A DNA stretch of 32,000 nt from Oikeobacillus pervagus (GCF_030813365.1 NZ_JAUSUC010000008.1:1-32000); one strand, 5' to 3'. Shown: positions 1 through 31,127, numbered from the stretch's first letter. The notes: a model not told the origin generated them from the sequence alone. Made by a program: numbers and translations.

Positions 1-89
1 CTCAAATTATTGAACCGCCGTATACGGAACCGTACGTACGGTGGTGTGAGAGGGTCGAACGAATCAAAATTCCGATTCGTTCACTCTAC
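1..89 (+). mobile_element. Probable 3' terminal fragment (domain V-VI) of a group II intron, cut by the window edge
   Basis: nt 15-44 (ccgccgtat...acgtacggtgg) have the same ccgtat/acgtacgg arms as the domain V copies at 20127-20160 and 22719-22752. A 9-bp hairpin follows (gaacgaatc/gattcgttc) with an unpaired A, then a ...ctac end. It is atypical: CGC instead of AGC at the triad position and a shorter upper helix with a GAAC loop. Confidence 0.5.
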
Positions 90-186
90 TCGATTTACAC
101 CATGTTTATAAAAACAGCTAAAACTGGGCGAGTGTTTTTACAAGTGTTGCATGGAGGACACAGTTTTTCTTTATTTTGAAATAATA

Positions 187-14833: not shown

Positions 14834-15475
14834 GTGTTAGTTGATATTAATCTATTACCGGAAAAAGAAACGAGAAGTAAAAGCGTTCTATATATTCTTT
14901 TGGTCCTCATTTTACTCGCGATCATCCTTGTGGTTACGAACTTTATTTTAATCCAAACAAAAAAAAGTGATTTAGCACTGCTTGAGTCTAAAATCAAAAC
15001 GGCGGAACAACTACGAACGGCATTGGAGTCAAGCGTCGAAAATGATGAAAGTGAAAATAGTGTGGAGAAACTGAATGAAGCAGTTGAGTGGGCTGAATCA
15101 AAAAGAATTCGAACAGTTCCTGTATTACAACATTTAATTGAATTATTACCAAAACGGGGTTTTTTTCGGTCATTTTCTTACACATCGACAGAGAATTTAA
15201 AGCTTGAGGTACAATTTGATGTCAATAGAGAAGCGGCGTTTTATTTGATTGAACTTCAATCTTCCAAATGGATTCAATCTGTTCGACTTTTGTCTGTTTC
15301 AACAGATGAACTTGTGAAAGAAGGAGAAAAGTCAAACGATGATATGAAAATAAAGAAAGATTTGCCGAGATATATTGCCGAATATGAAATTTCATTAAAG
15401 GATACCAACATTAAAAAAGACGAAATGAAGACAGTCGATACAGTCGATAAAGAGCGAGGAGAAGATCAGCCATGA
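14834..15475 (+). CDS. pilN: PilN (fimbrial assembly protein)
   Basis: GTG start. N-terminus VDINLLPEK followed by a single TM helix is the PilN signature. Confidence 0.75.
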   Translation: MLVDINLLPEKETRSKSVLYILLVLILLAIILVVTNFILIQTKKSDLALLESKIKTAEQLRTALESSVENDESENSVEKLNEAVEWAESKRIRTVPVLQHLIELLPKRGFFRSFSYTSTENLKLEVQFDVNREAAFYLIELQSSKWIQSVRLLSVSTDELVKEGEKSNDDMKIKKDLPRYIAEYEISLKDTNIKKDEMKTVDTVDKERGEDQP

Positions 15476-16155
15476 GTTTTTTTCAAGAGAAACGGAATAT
15501 ATGGATTCTCTCCTTAGCGATTCTTTTACTAATTGGAATCATAATGATTACATATATATTTTATTATCGCCCTGTTACCGAAGATATAAATAGAAAAGAA
15601 AAGCAATTGCAGTCTGAGGAGAAATTAATTGAAGTGTTGGAAAAGAACGATCGTTCGTCCACAACTCAAAATCGAGTGGTGACAAGCAATTTACAACAAA
15701 AAATACCAGTGAAGCCGATGACCGATAAGCTGTTATTAGATTTGGAAAAAGTTGAATTGATGTCCCATTGTTTGATTGAATCGATGGATTTTAAAGATGA
15801 TGAAACGTCTGATGAAACGGGAATAGACGGAGCAGAGGAAAAAGGGAAGTCCCGGCCGGCTGAGATTAAAGAACTGACAGCGGAGTTAACCGTTATTTCT
15901 CCCGGATATTTTGAAATGCAGGAATTTTTATCTGGATTGGAACAACAAATCCGTACAATAAAAATTGAGGAAATCATTTTTGATGTCCCAGATGAAGCGA
16001 CGAAACTAAAAGGAGAAGGAAAAGAGTTCACTTTCAATGTGACGATTCAGACGTACTATATGCCAAACCTAGTTGATTTATTAAAAGATTTGCCGAAAAT
16101 CGATACACCTGGTCCAGCTAATAAGAAATCCCCCTTCGTGATTGTTGGGGATTAA
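15472..16155 (+). CDS. pilO: PilO-like bitopic pilus alignment protein
   Basis: ATGA overlap with pilN. It has a single N-terminal TM, a coiled segment and a C-terminal domain. The call rests on position and topology. Confidence 0.65.
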   Translation: MSFFQEKRNIWILSLAILLLIGIIMITYIFYYRPVTEDINRKEKQLQSEEKLIEVLEKNDRSSTTQNRVVTSNLQQKIPVKPMTDKLLLDLEKVELMSHCLIESMDFKDDETSDETGIDGAEEKGKSRPAEIKELTAELTVISPGYFEMQEFLSGLEQQIRTIKIEEIIFDVPDEATKLKGEGKEFTFNVTIQTYYMPNLVDLLKDLPKIDTPGPANKKSPFVIVGD

Positions 16156-16181
16156 ATGAATAGGGAAGGCATCGTCTATGA

Positions 16182-16370
16182 ATGAAAAAGGCTTTACTCA
16201 TCCCTCCATCAGAGGCAACTTACGCAGTCACTGATCAAAAGGGAAAAATTACCGCGATCTGTTTAAAAGGAATGACAAAAAAACTTTGCTCCTATCAGAA
16301 AGGAAATGCCACCATCGAAGGGCCTGTTCCCATTCGGAAATTAATAAAAGAAAATATTACGGACAATTAA
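16182..16370 (+). CDS. Small hypothetical protein (62 aa), last ORF of the pil operon; coding status uncertain
   Basis: ORF only. The SD gggaagg (16163-16169) is better spaced for the out-of-frame ATG at 16178 (18 codons, MNEKGFT...). A terminator follows at 16392. Confidence 0.3.
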   Translation: MKKALLIPPSEATYAVTDQKGKITAICLKGMTKKLCSYQKGNATIEGPVPIRKLIKENITDN

Positions 16371-16391
16371 AAAATTTGACGAAAACCTTTC

Positions 16392-16427
16392 AGAACGAGA
16401 CGACAAAAGTCTTGTTCTTTTTTATTT
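16392..16427 (+). terminator. Rho-independent terminator ending the pil operon
   Basis: Stem agaacgagac / gtcttgttct (one G-T pair) followed by tttttatttt. Confidence 0.7.
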
Positions 16428-16541
16428 TCACTATGCTAGTATTAGCGAATGGAATAGAAGGTTAATTGGAATCGGGGAATACATGGCTAAGGACTTTCTA
16501 GCTTCCTTTTAAATATGAATATGGAAGAAGGGAGATATATT

Positions 16542-17540
16542 ATGGACAAGCAGACGAAAAAATCAACGGTCAAAATTAAAATCGATGGGAAGGAACAAAA
16601 ATTTGAAGATGATCTGCTTGTACATCATTGGAGTGGACAAGAAATGGCAGCTGCCGCAGAGAAAGATCAAAAGGAAGAAGATGACTTTGATTGGGTATTG
16701 CCTGATGAAGAAGCAGTCACTAAAAAAGAGGAGTTTCAACCGATGTATTATGTTCCAAAGCCAAAGCGAAAGAAACTCATGCTTCCAGGGAATTCTGGTA
16801 AAAGTATCGCTTCGATCATGTTTTCAATTGTAAGTGCGATGGTGATTGGAATCTCATTAGGATATGGAATCATTCATTTTATGCAGAAGGAAGATACCCC
16901 TAATTCCCAACCTACAAATCAAATGCTTCAAGAAAATGAGGGGAAGGATAGTAAAGCGGCTACTTCACCTCCAGAACAAAAGAAAGGGAGAGAGATTACC
17001 TTACCAGAATTGTCTACAAATATCGTTCAAGGTGGAGTATTTGGCGAGGAGGATGCTGCTAAAAAAGTGAAACAGTCGATTGCGGCGAAAGAGGTACCAG
17101 TTGAAATCGTCAATCAGGACGGAAATCAATTATTAGTTTTAGGGACAAGCAATGAATTGGGTACGGCTAAACTTTTAGGGGAAAAATTGAAAAAGAAAGA
17201 TATGGATGTCTATGCAAAAAGCCTATCCATTTCTGGAACCGCATCCGAATTTTCGAAAAAAGATGAAGCCTTATTAACAGAAATGCTCGCATTATTTGAT
17301 CAATCCTCAAAAGAAAGTATGGATATTCTTTTAAACAAAGAGGTAGACGATTCTACTATCGCTTCACTGCGAAAGAAAATCGAAAAACAAAAGACTAACA
17401 ATGAGAAAATGATCCAATTACAAACCGCCCTATTACAAGCAACAAAGGAAATCGAGTCATTCCAACAGACGAAAGATATCAAAAATGGCGAAAAGGCACA
17501 GGGATATTTATTAAAATTCATGAAAATCTATTCAAAATAA
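16542..17540 (+). CDS. spoIIB: Stage II sporulation protein B (SPOR-domain septal protein)
   Basis: SD gggaga precedes the ATG at 16542. N-terminus KKSTVKIKIDGKE, FDW, one TM helix and a SPOR-like segment (VQGGVFGEEDAAKKVKQSI...LLVLGTS) resemble B. subtilis SpoIIB. It lies directly upstream of maf, as in B. subtilis. Confidence 0.7.
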   Translation: MDKQTKKSTVKIKIDGKEQKFEDDLLVHHWSGQEMAAAAEKDQKEEDDFDWVLPDEEAVTKKEEFQPMYYVPKPKRKKLMLPGNSGKSIASIMFSIVSAMVIGISLGYGIIHFMQKEDTPNSQPTNQMLQENEGKDSKAATSPPEQKKGREITLPELSTNIVQGGVFGEEDAAKKVKQSIAAKEVPVEIVNQDGNQLLVLGTSNELGTAKLLGEKLKKKDMDVYAKSLSISGTASEFSKKDEALLTEMLALFDQSSKESMDILLNKEVDDSTIASLRKKIEKQKTNNEKMIQLQTALLQATKEIESFQQTKDIKNGEKAQGYLLKFMKIYSK

Positions 17541-17545
17541 AAGGT

Positions 17546-17577
17546 GAACCTGTATCGAGTGAGATGCAGGTTTTTTG
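17546..17577 (+). terminator. Rho-independent terminator after spoIIB
   Basis: Stem gaacctgtatc / gatgcaggtt followed by tttttt. Confidence 0.7.
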
Positions 17578-17756
17578 TTGGTTTTGGAGTAGCGCAAATA
17601 TTTAAGGGAAATAATCAAATCCTTTCGGTAAATGGTCAAACCTGAAAAAGAGGCCCTAGACATAGGAAAGTTTCCCCAGCCAATCGGTCAGATTTTCATC
17701 CTATTCTAAAGTTCAAGAATCATTCGTTCAAAAACCAAAGCATTTTCTGTAGAACA

Positions 17757-17785
17757 TTGTAACTTAGTAACAAATTTGGTAAGAT
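17757..17785 (+). promoter_or_regulatory. Candidate sigma-A promoter of the maf-radC(-mreBCD-minCD) unit
   Basis: ttgtaa, 17 nt spacer, taagat, with TG at the extended -10 position (tggtaagat). It lies 45 nt upstream of maf. Confidence 0.45.
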
Positions 17786-17829
17786 GATGATGGTGTATCT
17801 CCCTATTCAGATGAAGGAAAGGTGAATGA

Positions 17830-18423
17830 TTGATTTTGGCAAACATCATATTATCCTCTACCTCCCCGAGAAGAAAACAACTCCTTGAACAAATAAATCT
17901 CCCTTTTACCATTCAAACAACCCAAGTGAATGAATCTTATCCGAAACATTTATCACCTAAAGAAGTGGTGATGTATTTAGCGAATAAGAAGGCAGAAGCG
18001 ATTTCAAGTAAACAAGAAGATGCTTTTGTCATCGGTGCAGATACGATTGTCGTTTTCGAGAATGAAATTTTAGGTAAGCCTGAATCAAGTGAAGAAGCAA
18101 GGCAAGTTTTAAAGAAATTATCAGGGAATACCCATTCTGTCTATACGGGTGTGTCTATCCATTACAAACGAGAAAAAGAGATCTTTTATGAAAAAACTTT
18201 AGTTACTTTTTGGGAGTTAACGAATGAGGAAATCGAAGGCTATCTACATAGCGGTGAGCCTTTTGATAAAGCTGGTTCTTATGGAATTCAAGGAATAGGG
18301 GCCGCATTTGTAAGAAAAATTGACGGTGATTATTTTTCTGTCGTTGGCTTACCAGTAGCAAAAGTATATCGACAATTAAGAAGGATGGGCTATGTAGGGC
18401 CTCCGTTTTCCTTCTCGTCCTAA
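17830..18423 (+). CDS. maf: Maf nucleoside-triphosphate pyrophosphatase (septum formation protein)
   Basis: ILSSTSPRRKQLLEQ, VIGADTIV, KP and SYGIQG motifs; 197 aa; TTG start. Confidence 0.9.
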   Translation: MILANIILSSTSPRRKQLLEQINLPFTIQTTQVNESYPKHLSPKEVVMYLANKKAEAISSKQEDAFVIGADTIVVFENEILGKPESSEEARQVLKKLSGNTHSVYTGVSIHYKREKEIFYEKTLVTFWELTNEEIEGYLHSGEPFDKAGSYGIQGIGAAFVRKIDGDYFSVVGLPVAKVYRQLRRMGYVGPPFSFSS

Positions 18424-18442
18424 AAAAGAAGGGAGAGAAGAA

Positions 18443-18928
18443 ATGACTAAGGAATCGTTTATGATTCGGGATGTCCCTCAAAAGGACCGACCCCGTGAAC
18501 GAATGACCCAACACGGACCAGAAAGTTTGTCCAATCACGAGTTATTAGCGATTATTATACAAACAGGAACGAAAAATGAATCGGTCCTCCAATTAGCCAA
18601 TCGCCTCTTAAATCACTTCGATGGGCTAAGGTTGTTGCAGACCGCCTCTTTTGAAGAGATGACCTCTATTAAAGGAATTGGAAAAGCAAAGGCCGTGCAA
18701 ATTATGGCGGCAGTTGAATTAGGAAGGCGCATCAGCAACTTAAAATATGATGATCGTTATGTCATCCGCTCCCCAGAAGATGGCGCGAATTATATTATGA
18801 ATGATATGCGCTTCTTATCTCAGGAACACTTCGTATGTCTTTACCTCAATACCAAAAATCAAGTTATCCACAAACAAACCATTTTTATCGGCAGTCTAAA
18901 CGCATCCATCGTGCATCCACGTGAGGTT
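18443..18928 (+). CDS. radC: radC exon 1 (RadC/YsxA JAB-domain protein, residues 1-162)
   Basis: MIRDVPQKDRPRERM...HELLAIIIQTG...IKGIGKAKA (HhH)...SLNASIVHPREV. Homology stops exactly where GTGCG begins at 18929. Confidence 0.85.
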
Positions 18929-20221
18929 GTGCGCCCATAAGGGGATTTAGAAAATCTGTTCTAGCAAAGCAGTAGGGAATATCGCAATCTTTACCCTATC
19001 ATCAGCCAACTTATCCGTAAGGGAAACCGAGCGGGGAGTGTAGCATGTTGGAAAAGCCATAAGTTGTCTAGTTACCAAGGCACGACTGCATGGCGAGATG
19101 AAAATTCATAGACAAGGATGAAAGCTGAATTGCTTGAATGATAGCTCAAGGTGGATTACGGGAACCTTCAGCGGGAGGTAACGATATACGCTGTGCGAAA
19201 TGTGCATGTTTCTTAAAACACTTCGAGGAACATGAAGCGATACCATTTCGACCAACTTCTATATGGAAGAAACGAGTGAAAGTCACATCCGAAACTATGA
19301 AGTGCTATGTTTCTAAATGTCTAAATGGGGATTGCCTAAGTCAGAACGCTGTCAACACAGCTATGCATAATACCAAATAAGGTGATAAATTTCAAGCTGA
19401 AAAGCAAGAAAGATGATGCTGAATATCTGATATGGCAACGGAGCTCTCGTAGTAGTCCGAGATAGGGAAAGCCTATTACATGGCGAAGGGGAGCAGTTTA
19501 TCTCGTTTAATACAAAATTGGAAGGAGCGTGAGGCTCTGAGAAATCCAAAAGTAGTATTAAGCAATCTAACTACCAAAGCAAAAGTCGAAGCATAATGAT
19601 GACCTAGAAATTCTTCGAGCATACAATGCGGAAATTGAAGGATTATATAATTATTATCGACTAGCAAGCAATGTACATGTTCTTCAAACATTCCGACAAA
19701 CCATGATATACAGCATGATTATTATGCCAAATATAAAAGCACCGTTAGTAAAATTATTACAAAATACGGGATAAACAGGGAAATTGGTATATGATATATA
19801 ACGAAGGACGTTCCTAAAATTTCCTTTTTTACGGAACAACGAATGGAAAAAACTCGGAAATCCAAAAACAGTCAGTCGATATAATTGAAAATACGTTACT
19901 TTACGGTGGCAGAACAAGTCTCATCGAGCGCCTTTTTAGCCCAAAAGTGTGAGTGGTGTGGTGCAGAAAATGTTCCATTGGAAATGCATCATGTTAATAA
20001 ATTCAAGAACTTGAAAGGTAAGAAACGATGGGAGCAAATTATGATTGCGAGAAATCGCAAGTCGATTGCCATGTGTGTGAAATGCGATTATGACTTACGC
20101 AATGGAAAGTTAGATTGATAAATGGAAAGCCGTATACTCTGAGAGGGGTACGTACGGTTTGGAGGGGAGTTCTTGGAAACCTACTTAGGCAACTAAGCAA
20201 GGCGCTGAGTACTTACCCTAC
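18929..20221 (+). mobile_element. Group II intron 1 (RT-deleted, ORF-degenerate derivative), 1293 nt
   Basis: 5' GTGCGCC. Domain I motif aaagctgaattgcttgaat (19121-19139) is shared with intron 2. The 34-nt domain V at 20127-20160 (aAGCcgtat...GAGA loop...acgtacggttt) is present. The 3' end is taccctac. It is flanked in frame by radC exons. Confidence 0.85.
19480..20118 (+). pseudogene. Remnant of intron-encoded protein: N-terminal 38 codons, then X (maturase) and HNH fragments in different frames; RT domain absent
   Basis: 19480-19596 encodes MAKGSSLSRLIQNWKEREALRNPKVVLSNL...stop. 19604 onward encodes LEILRAYNAEIEGLYNYYRLASN, which aligns with LEILYIYNAELIGIANYYKLANN of the intron 2 IEP. AKYKSTVSKIITKYG, RTSLIERL and LAQKCEWCG...HHVNKFK...CVKCDYDLRNG each lie in a shifted frame. 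Confidence 0.8.
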
Positions 20222-20284
20222 TTCAAAGAAGCTTTCCGCCGCTCTGCCGCCTCCATTATATGTGCACATAATCACCCATCTGGT
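20222..20284 (+). CDS. radC: radC exon 2 (63-nt micro-exon, FKEAFRRSAASIICAHNHPSG)
   Basis: Translation continues RadC homology directly from ...HPREV and supplies the H-x-H part of the JAMM motif. It is bounded by the intron 1 3' end (taccctac) and the intron 2 5' GTGCG. Confidence 0.85.
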
Positions 20285-22813
20285 GTGCGCCTGCAAGGTG
20301 CGTAATTTTAGTGTTTCTTTAGAAACTAGAACTCCTTACAATGTTCTATGGTCAGCATCTTACCTTGAGGGGAAACCTATAGAGGGAACAGAGCATGATG
20401 TGAAAAGGAGAAAAGACGACAAAGCTATCTAATGTCGAGTCAGTTCTTCAGACCAAGTGATGTATGGTAAAAGCTAAACTGCTTGAATCCTAGACGAATG
20501 AGCGATGGGTGCGCCATTGTCTACGGTAGCTTATAGGCAATGAGGACAAAATGGGAGACATATCGCCAGAATGTCTACGGGTATCTCCAGAGCCCATACC
20601 ATAGTAAGGTTTGTCCTTCAATCCTCAACTAGAGGAAACCGTCGAAAGGGATACCTAACCATCACGTATCTAAAATTATGTCATAATGCAGGGATTACCT
20701 AAGTGCAAGTGCCTATTGGCTATTAGACATAAGTCTATGAAATTGGATATGGTAACGGAGTCTCCATAGTACCCAACGTTTGCTTGTAATGAGCTTAGCA
20801 GGGGGAAGGGAGACAGGTTGATGTTAACGTTAACTAGAGAGGAGTCATGAATATGACAACAAATCCATTTCGACAGTTAGACGTTATAAGGAATGCTTCT
20901 CAAAAAGGAAACATCATTACGGATTGTTATCGTCTCATGTATAACAAAGAGTTGTGGATTAAAGCATATGCAAAACTATATCCAAATGCAGGAGATTTAA
21001 AAAAGGGTACAACTGATGAAACAAAAGATGGTTTCAGTTTACAGAAAATAGATGACATCATCGAGCAATTAAAAGCTGGAACATTTCGCTTTGCACCTGT
21101 AAAAAGGGTTTATATCCCAAAATCTAATGGGAAAAAGAGACCTTTAGGAGTTCCTAACTTTAAAGATAAGATGGTACAGGAAGTTATGAGAATGATACTG
21201 GAGAATGTATATGAACCAGTATTCTCAGACAATTCCCATGGATTTAGGGAGGGCAGAAGTTGTCATACAGCACTTTCCCAAATCAAAAATACTTGGAAAG
21301 GTCTGACATGGTGTATTGTAGGAGATATTAGGGGTTTCTTCGATCATATTGACCATACTGTACTAATCAAACTTATCTCTATGAAAATCAATGACCGTCG
21401 TTTCCTGCTTCTTATTCATAATGCGCTTACTAGTGGTGTCATGGAAAATTGGACATATCAGAAAACATACAGCGGTACGCCACAAGGAGGTATTATCTCA
21501 CCTATCTTAGCTAATATCTACCTCCATGAGTTTGACTTGTTCATGGAAAAACAAATAGAGGAATTTGATATAGGAAAGGTTAGGGCGAGCAATGTCAGCT
21601 ACAAAAAAATCCGTGGGAAAATTTATACTTTATCTCGGAAAATCAAGAGACTTGATGAGAAAAACGGGCATACAAAATGGGAAAGACGAGAGGATATAGT
21701 TCTTACTATCCAAGAACTCAAAAGAAAACAAATAGAACCCCCATCAGTTGACCCAATGGATAATTATGATCAAAGAATGAAATATGTCCGTTATGCCGAT
21801 GATTTTGTAATCGGAATTGCTGGTTCTAAGGAAAGCGCATTATATATAAAGGAAATGATTAAAACTTTTCTTGAAAAGGAGCTCCACCTTGACCTAAGTG
21901 AAGAAAAAACGCTCATCACTCATTTGGAACATCCTATACCCTTTCTTGGATATGAGTTTCGAAGATGGGATGAGATAAAGGTCAAAAGAGTCAGGTATCA
22001 AAACCAAAAGCATTCATTGAAAAAGCGAACACGATCAGGTGCAATAAAGTTAGAAATCCCTGAAAAGAAAATCAAAGAATTTGCAATGAAAAATGGATAT
22101 GGAAATTTAGTCACCTTTAAAATAATACACAGAGCAAAATTAATTCACAATTCGGAGCTAGAAATATTGTATATCTATAACGCTGAGCTAATAGGAATTG
22201 CAAACTACTACAAGTTGGCGAATAACTATCATCATCTAGACAAGTTATTCTATCTAGCAGAAAGTAGTTTTATCAAAACCATTGCTAATAAACGAAGAAG
22301 TACTTCTATGAAGGTTGCATCTAGCATGAGAACTTACAAACAAGGTGTTCTGTGTTTAGCTAGGAAGGACAGACAAGGTAACGAAAGACTTCATCAATTT
22401 GTCAAACTAAAGGACTTACCTAAGCATAAAGGTGCAATTAAAGCAGATTCACCTGAAATAGATAGATTAACAAACACCATGAAATACTCAAGTAGAACAG
22501 AATTTGAACAGCGTTTATTAGCAAACAAATGCGAAGCGTGTGGTACAACAGAAGGTCAGATGGAGGTTCATCATGTCCGTAAGTTAAAGACTTGAAGAAA
22601 AAGAAACACTTAACATTTTGGACAAGAAAATGATAGAACGCAATAGAAAAACCATTGTCCTATGTTACAAATGCCATCATGACCACCATGAGAAGCAAAT
22701 TCTGATTAGTCAACTGGCGAGCCGTATACGCTGAAAGGTGTACGTACGGTTCTGAGGGGGGAATTGTGAAACCTGATTTGGAGACAGAGTAAGGCGCATG
22801 GTTCCTACCCTAC
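20285..22813 (+). mobile_element. Group II intron 2 with intron-encoded RT/maturase, 2529 nt
   Basis: 5' GTGCGCC. Candidate EBS2 gatgggtg (20504-20511) and EBS1 gccaga (20565-20570, in a hairpin loop) are complementary to the upstream exon. The IEP ORF sits in domain IV. Domain V at 22719-22752 has the gAGCcgtat...GAAA loop...acgtacggttc form. The 3' end is taccctac. Confidence 0.9.
20847..22595 (+). CDS. Group II intron reverse transcriptase/maturase (RT-X-D; C-terminal HNH endonuclease module frameshifted)
   Basis: 582 aa. RT motifs: RPLGVPNFKDKMVQE, RGFFDHIDH, GTPQGGIISPILANIYL and YVRYADDFVIG. The X domain contains YYKLANNY. The HNH start CEACG...VHHVRKLK is followed by a stop at 22593. 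The rest of the HNH module (KDLKKKKHLTFWTRK, then MIERNRKTIVLCYKCHHDHH) continues in two other frames up to 22734. Confidence 0.9.
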   Translation: MNMTTNPFRQLDVIRNASQKGNIITDCYRLMYNKELWIKAYAKLYPNAGDLKKGTTDETKDGFSLQKIDDIIEQLKAGTFRFAPVKRVYIPKSNGKKRPLGVPNFKDKMVQEVMRMILENVYEPVFSDNSHGFREGRSCHTALSQIKNTWKGLTWCIVGDIRGFFDHIDHTVLIKLISMKINDRRFLLLIHNALTSGVMENWTYQKTYSGTPQGGIISPILANIYLHEFDLFMEKQIEEFDIGKVRASNVSYKKIRGKIYTLSRKIKRLDEKNGHTKWERREDIVLTIQELKRKQIEPPSVDPMDNYDQRMKYVRYADDFVIGIAGSKESALYIKEMIKTFLEKELHLDLSEEKTLITHLEHPIPFLGYEFRRWDEIKVKRVRYQNQKHSLKKRTRSGAIKLEIPEKKIKEFAMKNGYGNLVTFKIIHRAKLIHNSELEILYIYNAELIGIANYYKLANNYHHLDKLFYLAESSFIKTIANKRRSTSMKVASSMRTYKQGVLCLARKDRQGNERLHQFVKLKDLPKHKGAIKADSPEIDRLTNTMKYSSRTEFEQRLLANKCEACGTTEGQMEVHHVRKLKT

Positions 22814-22954
22814 GACCCCGGTCCAAGCAGAGAGGACATTGAGGTGACAAAACGCTTAGTGGAGTGCGGCAAGATTATTGGAATTGATATTTTAGATCAC
22901 TTGATCATCGGGGATAACAAATACGTAAGTTTAAAAGAAAAAGGCTACTTATAA
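22814..22954 (+). CDS. radC: radC exon 3 ([46 protein letters not shown]-stop)
   Basis: It completes the JAMM motif (HNHPSG|DPGPSRED) and supplies the conserved RadC C-terminus. It is in frame with exon 2 once intron 2 is removed. Confidence 0.85.
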
Positions 22955-23019
22955 TGCTAGGATTTTCTTTTTTATTACGTTATAATATAATTTATGATTT
23001 TTACTAACTAATGTTTTTT

Positions 23020-23048
23020 TTGCCAATATGAAATCGACACTTAATAAC
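23020..23048 (+). promoter_or_regulatory. Weak candidate sigma-A promoter directly upstream of mreB
   Basis: ttgcca, 16-17 nt spacer, taataa/aataac, in the 157-nt AT-rich radC-mreB spacer. Confidence 0.25.
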
Positions 23049-23111
23049 GTGAAATGAGCAATACAATAATTGATGAAATTACGTAATTTGTATCAGAAAG
23101 GGAGATACACC

Positions 23112-24125
23112 ATGTTTGGAATTGGGACTAAAGATCTTGGAATTGACTTGGGGACAGCAAACACACTTGTGTATGCAAAGGGGAAAGGTGTTGTATTGCG
23201 TGAACCTTCAGTTGTCGCATTACAAACCGATACGAAACAAATTGTCGCGGTAGGAAATGACGCCAGAAATATGATTGGTCGTACACCAGGGAATATTGTC
23301 GCGACTCGTCCGATGAAGGATGGAGTTATTGCTGATTATGAAACGACTGCAACGATGATGAAATATTATATTAAGCAAGCCACGAAGTCAAAAGGATTAT
23401 TTGCGCGCAAGCCTTATGTAATGGTTTGTGTTCCTTCGGGGATCACAGCTGTTGAGGAACGTGCAGTAAAGGATGCAACTCGTCAAGCAGGTGCTAGGGA
23501 TGCCTTTACAATTGAAGAACCATTTGCAGCGGCTATTGGGGCCAATCTACCAGTTTGGGAACCGACTGGAAGCATGGTCGTCGATATCGGTGGAGGAACA
23601 ACAGAGGTGGCGATTATATCCCTTGGAGGAATTGTGACAAGTCAATCTTTACGTATTGCCGGGGATGAGTTGGATGATGCCATTGTTGCTTATATTCGTA
23701 AGCAATATAATCTCTTGATTGGGGACCGCACTTCAGAGGCAATCAAAATGGAAATTGGATCTGCAAGTGAGCCGGAAGAGAAAGAATCAATGGACATTCG
23801 TGGACGAGATCTTTTAACGGGACTACCTAAAACAATTGAAATTACAGCTGAGGAAATAAGTAAAGCACTGAAAGACACCGTATTTGCGATTGTGGATACA
23901 GTGAAAAGTACACTAGAAAAGACACCACCGGAACTAGCAGCTGATATTATGGATCGTGGGATCATTTTGACTGGCGGGGGCGCTCTTTTAAGAAATATTG
24001 ACAAAGTGATCAGTGATGAAACGAATATGCCAGTAATTATTGCGGAAGATCCGCTTGATTGTGTTGCAATCGGAACAGGAAAAGCATTAGATCATATCCA
24101 TTTATTTAAGAATAAAGTGAAATAA
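23112..24125 (+). CDS. mreB: Rod-shape determining actin homologue MreB
   Basis: [21 protein letters not shown]... The ATG at 23112 has SD aaagggag. The ORF track start at 23070 is an upstream extension. Confidence 0.95.
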
Positions 24126-24239
24126 CCATCAGTAGGAGCCTCCTCGCTGGTGGTTCCTTTCATGGGGGTTCGACAAATAGACGATTATGCAAACGGATCT
24201 TTTAAAAAAACAAAAGTTTGAATGATAGAGGTGGACGTG

Positions 24240-25139
24240 ATGCCACAATTTTTTATGAATAAACGATTGATTATTATGCTCGTCAGCATTATTGTTGTTG
24301 TGGCATTGATTGGTTTTTCCATTCGTGATCGAGAAAACATATCTTGGCCAGAGCAATTTGTAAAAGATATCGTCGGTTTGGGGCAAGTGGCCGTTTCTAC
24401 GCCTGCAAATGCTGTCTCTAACTTTTTTAAAGACTTAAAAAATTTGCAAAATACATATAAAGAGAATGAAAAATTAAAAGAACATTTAAATAGAATGACT
24501 CAAGTTGAAAGTGATGTAAACCGTTTAGAAAAAGATAATAAGGAATTGCGGGCATTATTAGACAAGAAGGAAAGCTTAGCTGATTATAACCCAGAGCAGG
24601 CCACTGTCATCAGTCGAAATCCTGATCGTTGGTTTGACGTCTTTACGATTAATAAAGGGAGATCTAATGGAATCCAACCGGACATGGCTGTAATGACGTC
24701 AAAAGGTTTAATTGGGAAAGTGAAAAATGTGTCTAAATTTACAGCAACCGTGGAAATGTTAAGTGCAAATGACCCGAAAAATAGGGTTTCTGCGATTATT
24801 CAAGATAAGAAAAAAAATCTGTACGGACTCATCGAAGGTTATGATAAAGAAAATGGTTATTTATTAATGAAAGTGAAACCTACCGAAGGGAAAATGAAAA
24901 AAGGAAAAAGCGTAACGACATCTGGTTTAGGCGGAGTGTTTCCTGATGGATTGGCTATTGGGAAAGTCGTTAAGTTAGAGCCTGATCATTTCGGCCTTAC
25001 TCAAATAGCCTATATTAAACCGTCCGCTGATTTTTATGACTTTGAGCATGTAGTTGTGGCTAAAAGAGGGATGCCTGTCGTAAAAGATACGGAAGAAAAA
25101 GAAAGACAGCAAGTCGTAGTGGAGGAGGAAGGCTTGTGA
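24240..25139 (+). CDS. mreC: Rod shape-determining protein MreC
   Basis: N-terminal TM helix, coiled coil (NTYKENEKLKEHL...) and a beta-rich C-terminal domain (GLIGKV...TSGLGGVFPDGLAIGKV). SD agaggtgg precedes the ATG at 24240. Confidence 0.9.
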   Translation: MPQFFMNKRLIIMLVSIIVVVALIGFSIRDRENISWPEQFVKDIVGLGQVAVSTPANAVSNFFKDLKNLQNTYKENEKLKEHLNRMTQVESDVNRLEKDNKELRALLDKKESLADYNPEQATVISRNPDRWFDVFTINKGRSNGIQPDMAVMTSKGLIGKVKNVSKFTATVEMLSANDPKNRVSAIIQDKKKNLYGLIEGYDKENGYLLMKVKPTEGKMKKGKSVTTSGLGGVFPDGLAIGKVVKLEPDHFGLTQIAYIKPSADFYDFEHVVVAKRGMPVVKDTEEKERQQVVVEEEGL

Positions 25140-25654
25140 AAAAAATCCTTCTTCCCTTACTGATGGCAGCTTGTTTTTTTAGTGAAACCGTCTTTATGGA
25201 ATGGTTCCCGGGGAATTCCTTTGATGGCAAATGGATATTCTCACCTCGCTTTTTCCTAATTGCCCTTTTGATATTAACCATCTTTTTTAAACGATCAACT
25301 GCAATGAAGTATGGATTTATTTTTGGTTTTTTATATGATCTTTATTACACAGAAATCCTTGGTGTATATATGCTTTTCTTCCCATTCCTTGTATATATTA
25401 CGTCGAAGTTAATGAAAATGTTGCATAACAATTTATGGGTGGTTGCGCTTGTTGTCTTATTTGACTTGGCTTTATTAGAAGTAGTGATTTACGAGTTAAA
25501 TGTGATTGTTCAAAGAACTTCGATGTCATTTACTCATTTTTTGAGTCATCGTTTATGGCCGACTCTTGTATTAAATTGGCTTTTTTATATTCTTTTTTCA
25601 TTTGCATTAAAATGGAGTTTTGAAAAATTAAGAAAACATTTGTTGGATGAATAA
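25136..25654 (+). CDS. mreD: Rod shape-determining protein MreD
   Basis: 172-aa polytopic membrane protein. Its GTG start overlaps the mreC stop. Position is conserved. Confidence 0.85.
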   Translation: MKKILLPLLMAACFFSETVFMEWFPGNSFDGKWIFSPRFFLIALLILTIFFKRSTAMKYGFIFGFLYDLYYTEILGVYMLFFPFLVYITSKLMKMLHNNLWVVALVVLFDLALLEVVIYELNVIVQRTSMSFTHFLSHRLWPTLVLNWLFYILFSFALKWSFEKLRKHLLDE

Positions 25655-25744
25655 TCATTTTTAGAAATGAATTCTTTCAGCACGTTAAGAGGAAAATGGA
25701 CGATGTTTGTCGAATTAATGTGCGACAGAGGTGAACTACACGCC

Positions 25745-26431
25745 ATGAAAAAAAGGCAAAATGTTATAATAAAAGGGACGAAAGACGGATTAACCTTGCA
25801 TTTAAATGATAAATGTTCCTATGATGAGCTATTAGAGGAGTTAGAGCAAAAAATGGACGGGCAACAGGAGGAAAATGAAACACCTTTAATAACAGTAAAA
25901 ATTCAAGCAGGAAATCGCTATTTGACTGCTAAGCAGAAGGAAGAAATGAAAGAAATTATTCGAAAAAAGAAGCATTTTGTTGTAAAAGAAGTTTCTACGA
26001 ATGTTGTGACGATCGAAGAGGCAACACGCTGGAAAGAAGAATCCGATATGACAAAGGTTGCAGGGATGATCCGATCAGGTCAAGTTCTTGAAGTTCCTGG
26101 GGATATATTAATTATCGGGGATGTAAACCCAGGAGGAACGGTTAAGGCTGGGGGCAATATTTTTATTCTTGGTTCATTGAAAGGAATCGTACACGCTGGA
26201 GTTCAGGGAAATGAGAAAGCAGTTGTTGTAGCATCACGAATGACCCCTTCACAGCTGCGTATTAGTGAGTATTCTACAATTGCTCCGCATCATAATGAAG
26301 AGAAGGAATCACATGAGATGGAATGTGCATACATAGATGAAAAAAAGCAAATTATTGTAGACCGTTTACAAACTTTAAGACAAATTAGACCTAATATTAC
26401 GAGTTTTAAAGGGGGAAGCTACAGTGGGTGA
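25745..26431 (+). CDS. minC: Septum site-determining protein MinC
   Basis: MKKRQNVIIKGTKDGLTLHLND...RSGQVLEVPGDILIIGDVNPGGTVKAGGNIFILGSLKG closely parallels B. subtilis MinC. The track ORF start at 25667 is an upstream extension. Confidence 0.9.
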   Translation: MKKRQNVIIKGTKDGLTLHLNDKCSYDELLEELEQKMDGQQEENETPLITVKIQAGNRYLTAKQKEEMKEIIRKKKHFVVKEVSTNVVTIEEATRWKEESDMTKVAGMIRSGQVLEVPGDILIIGDVNPGGTVKAGGNIFILGSLKGIVHAGVQGNEKAVVVASRMTPSQLRISEYSTIAPHHNEEKESHEMECAYIDEKKQIIVDRLQTLRQIRPNITSFKGGSYSG

Positions 26432-27233
26432 AGCGATTGTTATTACATCAGGTAAAGGTGGAGTAGGAAAAACAACGACCTCTGCTAATTTAGGTACAGC
26501 ACTTGCTCTCCAAGAAAAGAAAGTGTGTTTAGTAGATACGGATATTGGACTTCGAAATTTAGATGTGATTATGGGATTAGAAAATCGCATTATTTGTAAT
26601 TTAGTAGATGTTGTGGAAGAACGCTGTAAGCTCCATCAAGCATTGGTTAAGGATAAGCGATTTGAGGATCGATTATATTTACTTCCTGCGGCACAAACGA
26701 GTGATAAAAATGTGGTCTCACCAGAACAAATGAAGAAATTAATAGATGAATTGAAACAGGAATTCGATTACATATTGATCGATTGTCCAGCAGGAATTGA
26801 GCAGGGATTTAAGAATGCTGTTGCAGGTGCTGACCAAGCTGTTGTTGTCACAACTCCGGAAAAAGCTGCAGTACGCGATGCAGACCGAATCATTGGATTG
26901 TTAGAGAAGGATGGCAGAATCGCTAGACCTAAATTAGTCATTAACCGTATTCGACCTAAGATGATGGAGAATGGGGAAATGCTAGATGTAGATGAAATCA
27001 CTACCCATTTATCGATTGATTTACTTGGTATAGTAATAGATGATGAGAATGTAATAAAATCCTCTAATGAAGGGGAGCCCATTGCACATGATCCGAATAA
27101 TAAAGCATCAATTGCTTACCGAAATATTGCTCGAAGAATTTTAGGAGAGTCTATTCCTCTTCAACCATTAACAGAAGAAAAAGAAGGGGTATTTGCACGG
27201 ATCAAGAAATTTTTTGGAGCAAGATCTAAATAA
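26424..27233 (+). CDS. minD: Septum site-determining ATPase MinD
   Basis: GTG start. Deviant Walker A SGKGGVGKTT. C-terminal amphipathic helix FARIKKFFG. Confidence 0.95.
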   Translation: MGEAIVITSGKGGVGKTTTSANLGTALALQEKKVCLVDTDIGLRNLDVIMGLENRIICNLVDVVEERCKLHQALVKDKRFEDRLYLLPAAQTSDKNVVSPEQMKKLIDELKQEFDYILIDCPAGIEQGFKNAVAGADQAVVVTTPEKAAVRDADRIIGLLEKDGRIARPKLVINRIRPKMMENGEMLDVDEITTHLSIDLLGIVIDDENVIKSSNEGEPIAHDPNNKASIAYRNIARRILGESIPLQPLTEEKEGVFARIKKFFGARSK

Positions 27234-27236
27234 TTG

Positions 27237-27264
27237 AACTGCCACAATTGTAGGCAGTTTTTTC
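27237..27264 (+). terminator. Rho-independent terminator after minD
   Basis: Stem aactgcc / ggcagtt with an 8-9 nt loop, followed by tttttt. Confidence 0.75.
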
Positions 27265-27338
27265 TATTCCACTTTACGGGAAATCCCCCCTACTGAATGA
27301 AGTTTTACTTTATTTGTACTTCCCATCTTATAGGCTTG

Positions 27339-27367
27339 TCATATATTGTGAAGACAAGTCATAAGAT
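27339..27367 (+). promoter_or_regulatory. Candidate sigma-E-type promoter of spoIVFA-spoIVFB
   Basis: tcATAta, 14 nt spacer, CATAagaT, compared with the sigma-E pattern kmATAtt-N14-CATAcanT. The B. subtilis spoIVF operon is sigma-E dependent. The inverted repeat cttgtc/gacaag (27335-27358) overlaps it. Confidence 0.4.
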
Positions 27368-27400
27368 GTTCCCAAAAGGATAAAAAGGGAATGGTGAGGT

Positions 27401-28174
27401 ATGAGAAATCGCGCAGATGAAATTCGTAGACGGATAGCCAAGCGGAACAAGTTAAAACAAAGGAAACAGGAGCGACCATTTAGCCAGTACGATGCCCTTT
27501 GGGTAGAAGAAGAGAATCCATATGAAGACCGTACATTTTCATATGAAGAAGGATCAGATGAACACCACCCATTATTCAAAAAAGAATGGATCATGATGAA
27601 AATATTAGGGGCAGCCTTACTCGTATTATCTACAGCTATCATTATGCAAAACCCATCACCTATTTTTGATGATGGAAAAAAGCTTGTAGAGCATTCGATG
27701 AAAAAGGAATTTCAATTTGCCGCGATTGGGGATTGGTATGAACAACAATTTGGAAAGCCATTAGCCTTTTTGCCGACGAAAAATGAAGGAAAACATGTTG
27801 CCGATCAAGAAAATCAGGCATACGCATTACCGGCATCTGGACGAATTGTGGAGAAATTTGAGGCAGATGGGAAAGGGGTCATGATTGAAATCGGGAAGGA
27901 CGAAAAGGTAGAGGCGATGAACTCAGGACTTGTGATTTTCGCTGGCAAAAAGAAAGACCTTGGAAATACGGTTATTATTCAGCACCCGGATAAAACAGAA
28001 ACATGGTATGGGCATTTACAATCGATAGCGGTTCATCAATATGATCGTGTAGAAGCGGGGAAAACAGTTGGATCAGTGAAGGAACGCGAGGAAGGGCAAA
28101 CTGGTGAATTTTATTTTGCAATGAAAAAGGGGGATGATTTCATCGATCCCATACAGGTGATTACATTTGAGTAA
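27401..28174 (+). CDS. spoIVFA: Stage IV sporulation protein FA (LytM/M23-like domain, regulator of SpoIVFB)
   Basis: MRNRADEIRRRIAKRNK..., one TM helix, and a C-terminal degenerate M23 domain (VIIQHPDKTETWYGHL...VEAGKTVG). Confidence 0.85.
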   Translation: MRNRADEIRRRIAKRNKLKQRKQERPFSQYDALWVEEENPYEDRTFSYEEGSDEHHPLFKKEWIMMKILGAALLVLSTAIIMQNPSPIFDDGKKLVEHSMKKEFQFAAIGDWYEQQFGKPLAFLPTKNEGKHVADQENQAYALPASGRIVEKFEADGKGVMIEIGKDEKVEAMNSGLVIFAGKKKDLGNTVIIQHPDKTETWYGHLQSIAVHQYDRVEAGKTVGSVKEREEGQTGEFYFAMKKGDDFIDPIQVITFE

Positions 28175-29033
28175 ATTCCTGCTTCTATTATCCAAAGTGC
28201 ATATTCACCCCCTTCTTTGGATTGTAATGGCAATCGCCATCTTTACTGGTTATTTCACAGAATTATGGATGGTGCTTTTCATTGTGGTCATTCACGAATT
28301 AGGCCATTCTTTTGCTGCTCAGTATTTCTCTTGGAGGGTTCGAAAAATTTCTTTTCTGCCATTTGGCGGTGTTGCAGAGATGGATGAACACGGGAATCGC
28401 CCATTGAAGGAAGAATTTATCGTCATTTTAGCTGGTCCACTTCAGCATGTCTGGATGGCGATCGCTGCCCTTCTTCTTGAACGATTTGGATTTTTTCCGG
28501 GAATTCAATATGATGTTTTTTTGCAATATAATTGGATGATATTATTGTTTAATCTTCTTCCCATCTGGCCATTAGATGGGGGGAAACTATTGATGCTTGT
28601 TCTCTGTAGAAATCATACATTTTTACATGCGTTGAAATGGTCGATTTTATCTTCATTGATTCTGTTATCTTCGATTAGTTTGCTGACGATTCTTATTTCG
28701 CCAACTCATCTTCATCTATGGTTTGTCATGCTCTATTTATATGTGTCTCTATGGAAAGAATGGAAACAGCGTCATTTTGTGTTTATGAGATTTTTATTGG
28801 AACGTTATTACGGAAAAAAATCAGCCGTGGTTCAACTGGTCCCTTTACATGTATCGGTTGACTCTACATTACCTGTCATTTTAGAGCAATTTCAAAGGGG
28901 AGTGAAGCATCCGATCATCGTATTTCAAAATGGGGAGGAAAAAGGACAGCTTGATGAAAATGAAGTATTACATGCCTTTTTTACTGAAAAACAAACAACG
29001 GCGAAAATTAATGATTTGCTGTACTTATATTAG
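28167..29033 (+). CDS. spoIVFB: Stage IV sporulation pro-sigma-K processing metalloprotease SpoIVFB (site-2 protease)
   Basis: HELGH (HEXXH) in a TM segment, NLLPIWPLDGG motif and a C-terminal CBS-like region. The TTG start overlaps the spoIVFA stop. Confidence 0.9.
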   Translation: MSKFLLLLSKVHIHPLLWIVMAIAIFTGYFTELWMVLFIVVIHELGHSFAAQYFSWRVRKISFLPFGGVAEMDEHGNRPLKEEFIVILAGPLQHVWMAIAALLLERFGFFPGIQYDVFLQYNWMILLFNLLPIWPLDGGKLLMLVLCRNHTFLHALKWSILSSLILLSSISLLTILISPTHLHLWFVMLYLYVSLWKEWKQRHFVFMRFLLERYYGKKSAVVQLVPLHVSVDSTLPVILEQFQRGVKHPIIVFQNGEEKGQLDENEVLHAFFTEKQTTAKINDLLYLY

Positions 29034-30699: not shown

Positions 30700-30812
30700 T
30701 TTAATGTTATTGTTTGTAGCACCCGTGCTACAACCGCTCATGAAGGGTTTACAAGATTTTGCCTTGTGCAAAACACCTGAAAATGGCGAGTCTGAGTTAT
30801 TAAGGAGGTGCA
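30700..30812 (+). promoter_or_regulatory. Structured 5' leader of rplU (ribosomal protein L21-leader-like)
   Basis: Hairpin gtagcac-ccg-gtgctac at 30714-30732. cacct (30774-30778) is complementary to the SD aggtg (30805-30809). This is the position of the L21 leader known in Bacillales. No covariance model was run. Confidence 0.4.
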
Positions 30813-30818
30813 GAAGGA

Positions 30819-31127
30819 ATGTACGCAATTATTGAAACTGGCGGTAAACAAGTAAAAGTTGAAGAAGGTCAAACAATCTACATCGAAAAGGTAAATGCTG
30901 CAGAAGGTGATACTGTAACATTTGACCAAGTATTATTTGTAGGTGGCGACAATGTTCAAGTAGGAAGCCCAATCGTAGAAGGCGCTACTGTAACAGCAAA
31001 AGTTGAAAAACAAGGTCGCGCAAAAAAATTGGTTGTATTCAAATACAAACCTAAAAAGAACTATCGACGTAAACAAGGTCATCGTCAACCATATACGAAA
31101 GTTGTTATTGAAAAAATCAACGCGTAA
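30819..31127 (+). CDS. rplU: 50S ribosomal protein L21
   Basis: [18 protein letters not shown]...; 102 aa. Confidence 0.97.

Follow-up and report, generated by a model that had tools for sequence, protein, structure and literature searches.

Bacterial group II introns are mostly selfish elements that lie outside conserved genes. Those found in conserved chromosomal genes are natural experiments on becoming stable, host-dependent introns, which are the proposed route to organellar and ultimately spliceosomal introns. Described cases include the recA intron of Geobacillus kaustophilus and the groEL intron of Azotobacter vinelandii (both cited in PMC4424553), and radC, too, has been recorded as an intron host. 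The exons of O.i.I2 of Oceanobacillus iheyensis, an intron of the mitochondrial-like (ML) class listed as IIA (PMC8283771), encode RadC; its protein is degenerate and lacks the YADD motif, and its maturase was argued to be retained because its exons encode RadC (Zimmerly and Semper 2015, PMC4424553). In the B. cereus group, too, a radC-family gene has been reported to contain a group II intron (Tourasse and Kolsto, PMC2504315). Further afield, a trans-acting maturase (cited in PMC2504315) and a twintron (PMC4649490) are known from the cyanobacterium Trichodesmium, which has multi-intron genes and ORF-less introns (those without an open reading frame), and organellar group II introns share maturases such as MatK and nMat (PMC4424553). 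We report here that the chromosomal radC of Oikeobacillus pervagus consists of three colinear exons split by two group II introns only 63 nt apart. The gene lies in a stretch of 32,000 nucleotides (GCF_030813365.1 NZ_JAUSUC010000008.1:1-32000), hereafter the window; all coordinates are those of the whole window, and all of the radC and intron features listed are on the + strand.

The gene is laid out as follows, where ORF denotes an open reading frame:

18443-18928, + strand: radC exon 1, 486 nt, 162 codons, with the C-terminal end ...IVHPREV, then GTGCGCC.
18929-20221, + strand: intron 1, 1,293 nt, group IIA (ML-like), an ORF-less derivative; 5' GUGCGCC, 3' ...UACCCUAC.
20222-20284, + strand: radC exon 2, the micro-exon, 63 nt, 21 codons, FKEAFRRSAASIICAHNHPSG, then a second GTGCGCC.
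20285-22813, + strand: intron 2, 2,529 nt, group IIA (ML-like), with a protein gene inside; 5' GUGCGCC, 3' ...UACCCUAC.
22814-22954, + strand: radC exon 3, 141 nt, DPGPSRED...KEKGYL, stop codon 22952-22954.

Once joined, the 486, 63 and 141 nt run in frame and encode a RadC of 229 amino acids. The joined protein covers positions 1-120 of the 121 of Pfam RadC (PF04002, E 4.7e-50), also matches UPF0758_N, and scores 296 bits with the NCBIfam RadC equivalog (PRK00024), for which the cutoff is 180. Its alignment to a solved RadC homolog (PDB 2qlc) is free of gaps over both joints. The JAMM motif, H-x-H-x7-S-x2-D, is complete in the joined protein, and intron 2 interrupts it after HNHPSG, with H-x-H on one side and S-x-x-D on the other. 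Without splicing, the frame of exon 1 enters intron 1 and stops at 18938-18940, four codons in, giving a mechanical ORF of 165 amino acids; the Logan gene call (L001 3615-4094) likewise gives radC as an N-terminal fragment of 159 amino acids and leaves the micro-exon and exon 3 unannotated. An exact look-up of the 165-amino-acid ORF had no match on record. Standard annotation would show radC as a truncated fragment of 159-165 amino acids, and intron-aware annotation is therefore needed.

Rfam model RF00029, which describes domains V and VI and has a gathering score of 40, matches intron 1 at 20125-20221 (59.5 bits, E 1.8e-9) and intron 2 at 22717-22813 (65.4 bits, E 6.4e-11), and both matches end on the predicted last intron base, at the 3' splice sites. 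In the folds of both introns, domain V is a hairpin of 34 nt that has the AGC triad and a bulge of 2 nt, while domain VI has a bulged A 7 nt from the 3' end (A20215 and A22807, respectively). The intron ends, GUGCGCC ... CCCUAC in both, agree with the group II rule of 5' GUGYG and 3' AY. The Rfam D1-D4 models gave only sub-threshold matches to the introns, and the evidence for the 5' part of the ribozymes therefore rests on comparative alignment. Taken together, the continuity of the exons, the domain V/VI matches and the folds are not plausibly due to chance.

Much of this had been anticipated by the original prediction, which was made from the sequence. Re-reading of the sequence agrees with its limits for all three exons; the in-frame, colinear RadC of about 229 amino acids is borne out by the full-length Pfam and NCBIfam matches and by the gap-free 2qlc alignment; and the joined translation contains the intact JAMM motif, with intron 2 between H-x-H and S-x-x-D, as described. 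The group II hallmarks that it listed (5' GUGCG, a 34-nt domain V, the AGC triad, a GNRA loop and the 3' end) hold in the RF00029 matches and the folds, the model scoring above its gathering score for both of the predicted domain V/VI segments (20127-20221 and 22719-22813). The prediction missed the loss of the intron 1 ORF and the frameshifts in the endonuclease region of intron 2.

Intron 1 was compared with full-length copies from a B. cereus-group species (L085), where it encodes a protein of 603 amino acids, and from B. badius (L086). Relative to these references, one clean deletion of 1,223 nt has removed the reverse transcriptase (RT) domain and part of domain X, and the remnant of the ORF has further small indels beyond the loss of its ATG and the large deletion. 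The features of intron 1, including its exon-binding sites (EBS) and the intron-binding sites (IBS) in the exon, are:

18915-18928, + strand: 5'-exon sites, IBS2 candidate AUCCAC at 18915-18920 and IBS1 UGAGGUU at 18922-18928.
19151-19156, + strand: EBS2 candidate GUGGAU, tentative.
19205-19234, + strand: EBS1 hairpin, loop CACUUCG at 19219-19225; delta A19218 pairs with U20222.
19533-19604, + strand: remains of the ORF start; ATG lost by a 2-nt deletion at about 19538, junction of the 1,223-nt deletion at about 19590.
19885-20118, + strand: remnant ORF of 77 amino acids, the HNH endonuclease domain of the lost protein (PF21368, E 3e-23).
20127-20221, + strand: domains V and VI, domain V at 20127-20160 with AGC triad and GAGA loop; domain VI branch-point A20215.

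The 77-amino-acid HNH remnant is not a functional gene. The ribozyme, as judged from its sequence, appears intact despite the lost protein gene. Eight intron 1 copies, folded with RNAalifold over their 5' 550-590 nt (domain I to domain IVa, DI-DIVa), give a consensus of 140 pairs, and double-sided compensatory changes occur at 40 of these. The ORF-less copy in the window keeps 138 of the 140 as standard pairs, the ORF-bearing copies keeping 136-139; since the consensus was derived from the same sequences, the absolute counts of pairs lean towards structure, while the comparison between copies is a fair one. The EBS1 loop CACUUCG pairs with exon positions -2 to -7 (6 of 7 positions), a C-G to U-A exchange occurs at -3 among seven copies, and a conserved A lying 5' of EBS1 faces a conserved U at +1. 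An initial EBS1 candidate, AACCUU (about 19163-19168), was dropped for this loop because CACUUCG is placed like the EBS1 of intron 2 and shows compensatory change; its location is also that of EBS1 in Ll.LtrB.

Intron 2 keeps a protein gene. Its product, of 582 amino acids, is 100% identical to a protein annotated in O. pervagus and retains only the first 20 residues of the HNH endonuclease domain. Alignment with four orthologs places two 1-nt deletions in the endonuclease region, at about 22588 and about 22616, and the one at about 22588 creates the stop at 22593-22595 that truncates the domain. The pN/pS ratio (nonsynonymous to synonymous differences) of the protein against its orthologs is 0.13-0.21, from which the RT/maturase part is taken to be a working gene. 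The features of intron 2 are:

20273-20284, + strand: IBS sites, in exon 2, IBS2 CACCCA at 20273-20278 and IBS1 UCUGGU at 20279-20284.
20506-20511, + strand: EBS2 UGGGUG, 6/6 pairs with IBS2.
20565-20570, + strand: EBS1 GCCAGA in a hairpin loop, 6/6 pairs with IBS1; delta C20564 pairs with G22814.
20847-22595, + strand: intron 2 protein, 582 amino acids, RT and maturase (X), YADD at 21792-21803.
22719-22813, + strand: domains V and VI, domain V at 22719-22752 with AGC triad and GAAA loop; domain VI branch-point A22807.

Over 19 genome and metagenome copies, the EBS1 of intron 2 fits its own exon with 5.21 of 6 pairs, against 4.45 of 6 for the exons of other copies (permutation p = 1e-4). EBS1 and IBS1 covary at the synonymous positions -1 and -4, and one copy compensates fully where the serine codon is AGC rather than TCN. 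In two copies (L085 and L103) the EBS1 loops, GCCGCT and TTCACT, form only 3 of 6 pairs with their own exon, which may reflect a shifted pairing or degenerating exon recognition. We also observed that the deletion at about 22588 (AAAGG to AAAG, within window 22581-22595) falls at the same alignment column as a 1-nt deletion in the intron 2 of B. badius (L086). Either a short run has slipped more than once, or the two copies descend from an intron that was disabled already.

The best solved relative of the intron 2 protein is LtrA of Ll.LtrB (PDB 5g2x), matched over its full length (E 1e-127), whereas group II proteins of other classes and other reverse transcriptases match it in the RT domain only; for this reason intron 2 is placed in the IIA, LtrA-like, ML lineage. 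In both introns the base directly 5' of EBS1 can pair with the first base of the 3' exon (delta-delta', not EBS3). We accordingly regard both as members of the IIA/ML class, an assignment made by the LtrA match and the delta pairing. The two are separate introns, as the original prediction had it. Copies of one element were considered and rejected: the introns are alike by BLASTN (73% identity) over only about 100 nt of domains V/VI, and in the B. cereus-group species (L085) the intact intron 1-family protein and the intron 2-family protein are 44% identical. A twintron was likewise rejected, the introns being not nested but placed on either side of a 63-nt coding exon, which intron-less orthologs conserve as well.

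Occurrence of the two introns in other taxa was followed through relatives of both intron proteins and through a metagenome scan for the HNHPSG/GTGCGCCTG junction ('/' marks the insertion point here and below). Genome contigs were scanned with the spliced RadC, and the best 80, ranked by contiguous match, were retained. The alleles found were:

Both introns and the identical 63-nt micro-exon: B. cereus-group sp. BfR-BA-01380 (L085), B. badius (L086-L088), Mesobacillus (L114) and one metagenome contig (L096).
Intron 2 only: Oceanobacillus indicireducens (L083), Peribacillus cavernae (L089), O. senegalensis (L116), Halobacillus karajensis (L117) and 19 of 20 metagenome contigs.
Intron 1 only: Ectobacillus panaciterrae (L111), Sporosarcina luteola (L112) and a divergent radC paralog on plasmid pB218 of Metabacillus sp. 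B2-18 (L115).
Neither intron: the best 80 genome matches to spliced RadC (L003-L082).

All four allele states thus exist, and the sites PREV/F and HNHPSG/D are occupied independently in other taxa. The intron-less alleles, for which the original prediction had pointed to related radC loci, make up the whole of the last set; as that set was picked by contiguous match, no frequency of introns can be taken from it. The intron 2 junction pattern had no matches in viral contigs. The target footprint of an LtrA-type intron extends from about -25 to +10, and independent occupancy fits with this, since two such footprints placed 63 nt apart do not overlap. The original prediction did not recognise the arrangement as one described for radC. 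This stands for the pair, in that no description of two introns in radC, of the micro-exon or of an ORF-less radC intron was found in the literature outside subscription-only sources and the Zimmerly intron database, and fails for single radC introns, which are on record (PMC4424553, PMC2504315). Nor is the arrangement singular, given the same two-intron allele in several other genomes (L085, L086-L088, L114, L096).

Several of these loci have features of their own. In the stretch fetched for Mesobacillus (L114, 1-3940), the two-intron radC is without its first 129 or so codons, and phage-like genes (SPP1 holin, amidase, helix-turn-helix) lie upstream; a prophage or a rearrangement within the gene may be responsible. 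In Planococcus sp. ISL-109 (L113, 6418-9400 and beyond), intron 1 occupies its usual radC site and a second, different intron (5' GTGCGAC, 3' ...TTGCTAT, with an RT of 627 amino acids) lies in the Pro codon of HNHP/SG, 8 nt upstream of site 2; the frame is broken again after LLDH, beside GTGCGCTG, with another RT/HNH gene downstream, and this radC may contain three introns. On pB218 (L115, 5509-8726) intron 1 interrupts a RadC/JAB paralog, again at HPRE(I/V)/F; the paralog adjoins DUF3854 and IS3 genes, with a second ltrA gene 2 kb downstream. The plasmid paralog is a likely vector for the spread of the intron.

Among relatives of the intron proteins, shortened members of both families (about 450-550 amino acids; P0121-P0358) have no HNH domain and often have a mutated RT site, in the forms YAGD, YAED, YADN, YADG and YTGS, which suggests that both protein families have been converted repeatedly to maturase-only forms. 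In O. pervagus itself, the protein set of the mobile form (RT, X, D/En) is incomplete in both introns, intron 1 being without RT and most of X, and intron 2 without En. From this coding content we read both introns as derivatives of mobile forms that are not mobile themselves.

The explanation that we favour for the locus as a whole, with a probability of roughly 80%, is that two IIA introns homed into radC, are spliced out to give the 229-amino-acid RadC and are now immobile residents. Each would have arrived by site-specific retrohoming into its own conserved DNA site, PREV/F or HNHPSG/D, in the region of the JAMM motif. Ribozyme-catalysed lariat splicing would then remove both introns from the pre-mRNA, the exons being recognised through the predicted EBS1, EBS2 and delta pairings and A20215 and A22807 serving as the putative branch points, so that expression of RadC would depend on the excision of both. 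Mobility would have been lost since arrival, and the two introns would persist as splicing-only residents, like those of organelles. For intron 1, help may come in trans from the maturase of intron 2, a protein of the same class encoded 600 nt downstream in the same transcript; on this step taken alone we remain tentative, giving it close to an even chance.

That the split gene results from an assembly artefact or chimera, with intron copies misplaced into radC, is suggested only by the general risk attached to repeated elements and is exceedingly improbable. Over window 14847-28595 (13.7 kb) the sequence agrees at every base (100%) with a Logan contig assembled independently (L001), and a contig from a second sequencing run (L002) encodes the same frameshifted intron 2 protein of 582 amino acids, for which reasons the split gene and the frameshifts are taken as real and not as assembly errors; the same junctions are found in other species, moreover, and the exon phase is exact. 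Vertical inheritance from an ancient Bacillaceae ancestor, with repeated loss in place of retrohoming, would account for identical sites in distant genera and for the many copies with degenerate, immobile proteins, yet we consider it unlikely on the pattern of divergence. Intron 2 DNA is 80-85% identical between hosts whose radC exons are 62-72% identical, in most pairs the gene for the intron 2 protein shows less synonymous difference (0.53-0.67) than mreB, mreC, minD and radC, and the closest copy to the intron 2 of the window is that of O. indicireducens, one of the two hosts most distant by radC. Over its 5' 632 nt, intron 1 shares 92.5% identity with the copy on pB218, where the RadC exons have only 47% (N-terminal) and 66% (C-terminal) protein identity with those of the window. 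Many copies, furthermore, keep full RT, X and En domains.

The possibility that radC is a pseudogene, in which one or both introns (the ORF-less intron 1 in particular) stay unspliced and only the N-terminal fragment of 165 amino acids is made, gains something from the missing maturase gene and the mismatch at IBS1 position -1 in intron 1, from the stop four codons into that intron and from the fact that RadC is dispensable in laboratory strains. We judge it very unlikely in view of the downstream exons. The 67 codons of exons 2 and 3 downstream of intron 1 are without stop or frameshift, and their pN/pS is 0.06-0.21 against intron-bearing and intron-less orthologs (synonymous sites being near saturation, and one misregistered row, L015, being excluded from the table). 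Intact and constrained exons, set against an intron 1 ORF that decayed over the same period, argue that these exons are translated as part of RadC with both introns removed, and from this purifying selection we infer that both are spliced in vivo. The intron 1 ribozyme also keeps as many of its consensus pairs as the ORF-bearing copies do, its domain V triad and branch-point A are intact, at least two other genera still have three-exon alleles in intact form, and the Mesobacillus copy, the 5' part of which was not found, keeps exons 2 and 3. How intron 1 is spliced is a finer question. It could proceed without the intron 2 protein, either by self-splicing with host RNA chaperones or with the maturase of another group II intron in the genome, and this we regard as a genuine possibility that still falls some way short of even odds. 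Group IIA ribozymes can self-splice in vitro, and the two protein families are only 44% identical; against this, IIA introns normally need a maturase in vivo, as established for Ll.LtrB. Also in its favour, bacterial ORF-less introns usually occur in genomes with related introns (PMC4424553), and the end of a third, IIC-type intron is present at window 13-94. On the other side, the CGC triad of that third intron sets it in another class, and the best 120 intron 1-family proteins (at least 57% identity), of which only part are named, include no named entry from Oikeobacillus.

Our preferred account of two homed introns, spliced out and now immobile, has to carry several points that weigh against it. 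Recognition of intron 1 by the intron 2 protein is assumed across families that differ to the extent just given, and the DIVa regions of the two introns are, by eye, not obviously alike. In the window, position -1 of the intron 1 IBS1 is mismatched (U opposite C), and the assignment of the intron 1 EBS2 is tentative. The lower synonymous divergence of the intron 2 protein could, in part, reflect constraint from codon usage or RNA structure and not horizontal spread.

A broader reading of the comparative pattern is that the JAMM region of radC, about 130 nt in length, together with its plasmid paralogs, is a homing hot-spot in the Bacillales for several independent lineages of group II introns, and that these residents repeatedly degenerate in an organelle-like manner, the O. 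pervagus allele being an advanced stage; we offer this with caution, placing it slightly below an even likelihood. At least two IIA families would use fixed sites there, and one Planococcus has an additional, different intron inserted 8 nt before site 2, with probably one more at LLDH/. On the proposed path, En would be lost, YADD would mutate, the ORF would disappear and the intron would come to depend on the maturase of a neighbouring intron. If this is correct, the O. pervagus allele is a tractable bacterial model for the passage from mobile introns to host-dependent, splicing-only ones.

The surrounding locus has the gene order maf-radC-mreB-mreC-mreD-minC-minD, in a Bacillaceae host. A promoter and terminator scan, whose counts were about those in shuffled sequence, found no intrinsic terminator between radC and mreB. 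At the edge of the window, at 13-94 on the + strand, lies the 3' end (domains V/VI) of the third group II intron, matched by RF00029 at 43.5 bits. Its domain V has a CGC triad in place of AGC and a very short loop, which we take to be a mark of class C (IIC). With its last base at 94, some 165 nt before a 3D-domain/PcsB-like gene (261-1397), the intron is apparently intergenic, the remainder lying beyond the window edge. A ribosomal protein L21 leader (30722-30803, + strand; RF00559, 56.8 bits) is found directly upstream of an ORF of 102 amino acids (30819-31127) and is ordinary for Bacillaceae.

In comparison with known systems, radC is an already known intron host, and it is the combination of features at the O. 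pervagus gene that is of interest, not a new kind of system. One cultivable Bacillaceae locus combines two adjacent introns with a 63-nt exon that both ribozymes must recognise, and one intron without its own maturase with a maturase that has no endonuclease, while full-length mobile relatives and all four allele states in related taxa are open to comparison. Comparison across taxa suggests that introns have homed into radC repeatedly and then degenerated in the manner of organellar ones. The nearest counterpart is O.i.I2, which shares the host gene and the class and which, also in a conserved gene, shows the same tendency for the intron to become immobile and its protein to be reduced to a maturase. 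It differs in being a single intron whose protein is without YADD; O. pervagus has two introns, with YADD kept and En lost in intron 2 and no ORF in intron 1. Introns of the intron 2 family occupy HNHPSG/D in two further members of that genus, O. indicireducens and O. senegalensis, the latter with YAGD instead of YADD in its protein, and for this reason intron 2 most likely belongs to the O.i.I2 family; a shared insertion site would follow for O.i.I2, on whose site the literature gave only one-line mentions.

The similarities to Ll.LtrB and LtrA of Lactococcus lactis are structural, namely the 5' GUGCGCC, EBS2 and EBS1 about 55 nt apart, the delta nucleotide 5' of EBS1 and the order RT-X-D-En in full-length relatives of the radC intron proteins. 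Ll.LtrB, however, is fully mobile and resides in a plasmid relaxase gene, whereas the radC introns are chromosomal and lack En (intron 2) or the whole ORF (intron 1). The recA and groEL introns resemble them as group II introns in conserved chromosomal genes whose function needs splicing, but are single introns with their own proteins, with neither a micro-exon nor an ORF-less partner. Trichodesmium has ORF-less introns that are thought to be served in trans by the maturase of a related intron; it belongs to another phylum and its introns include twintrons, whereas the radC introns lie side by side in a Bacillaceae operon, and the putative helper protein in radC is only 44% identical to the lost intron 1-type protein. 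Organellar introns, finally, are likewise resident in conserved genes, have lost RT/En functions and ORFs, and depend on maturases encoded elsewhere, but O. pervagus is a free-living organism in which the degeneration is recent and partial and whose introns have mobile, full-length relatives still in circulation.

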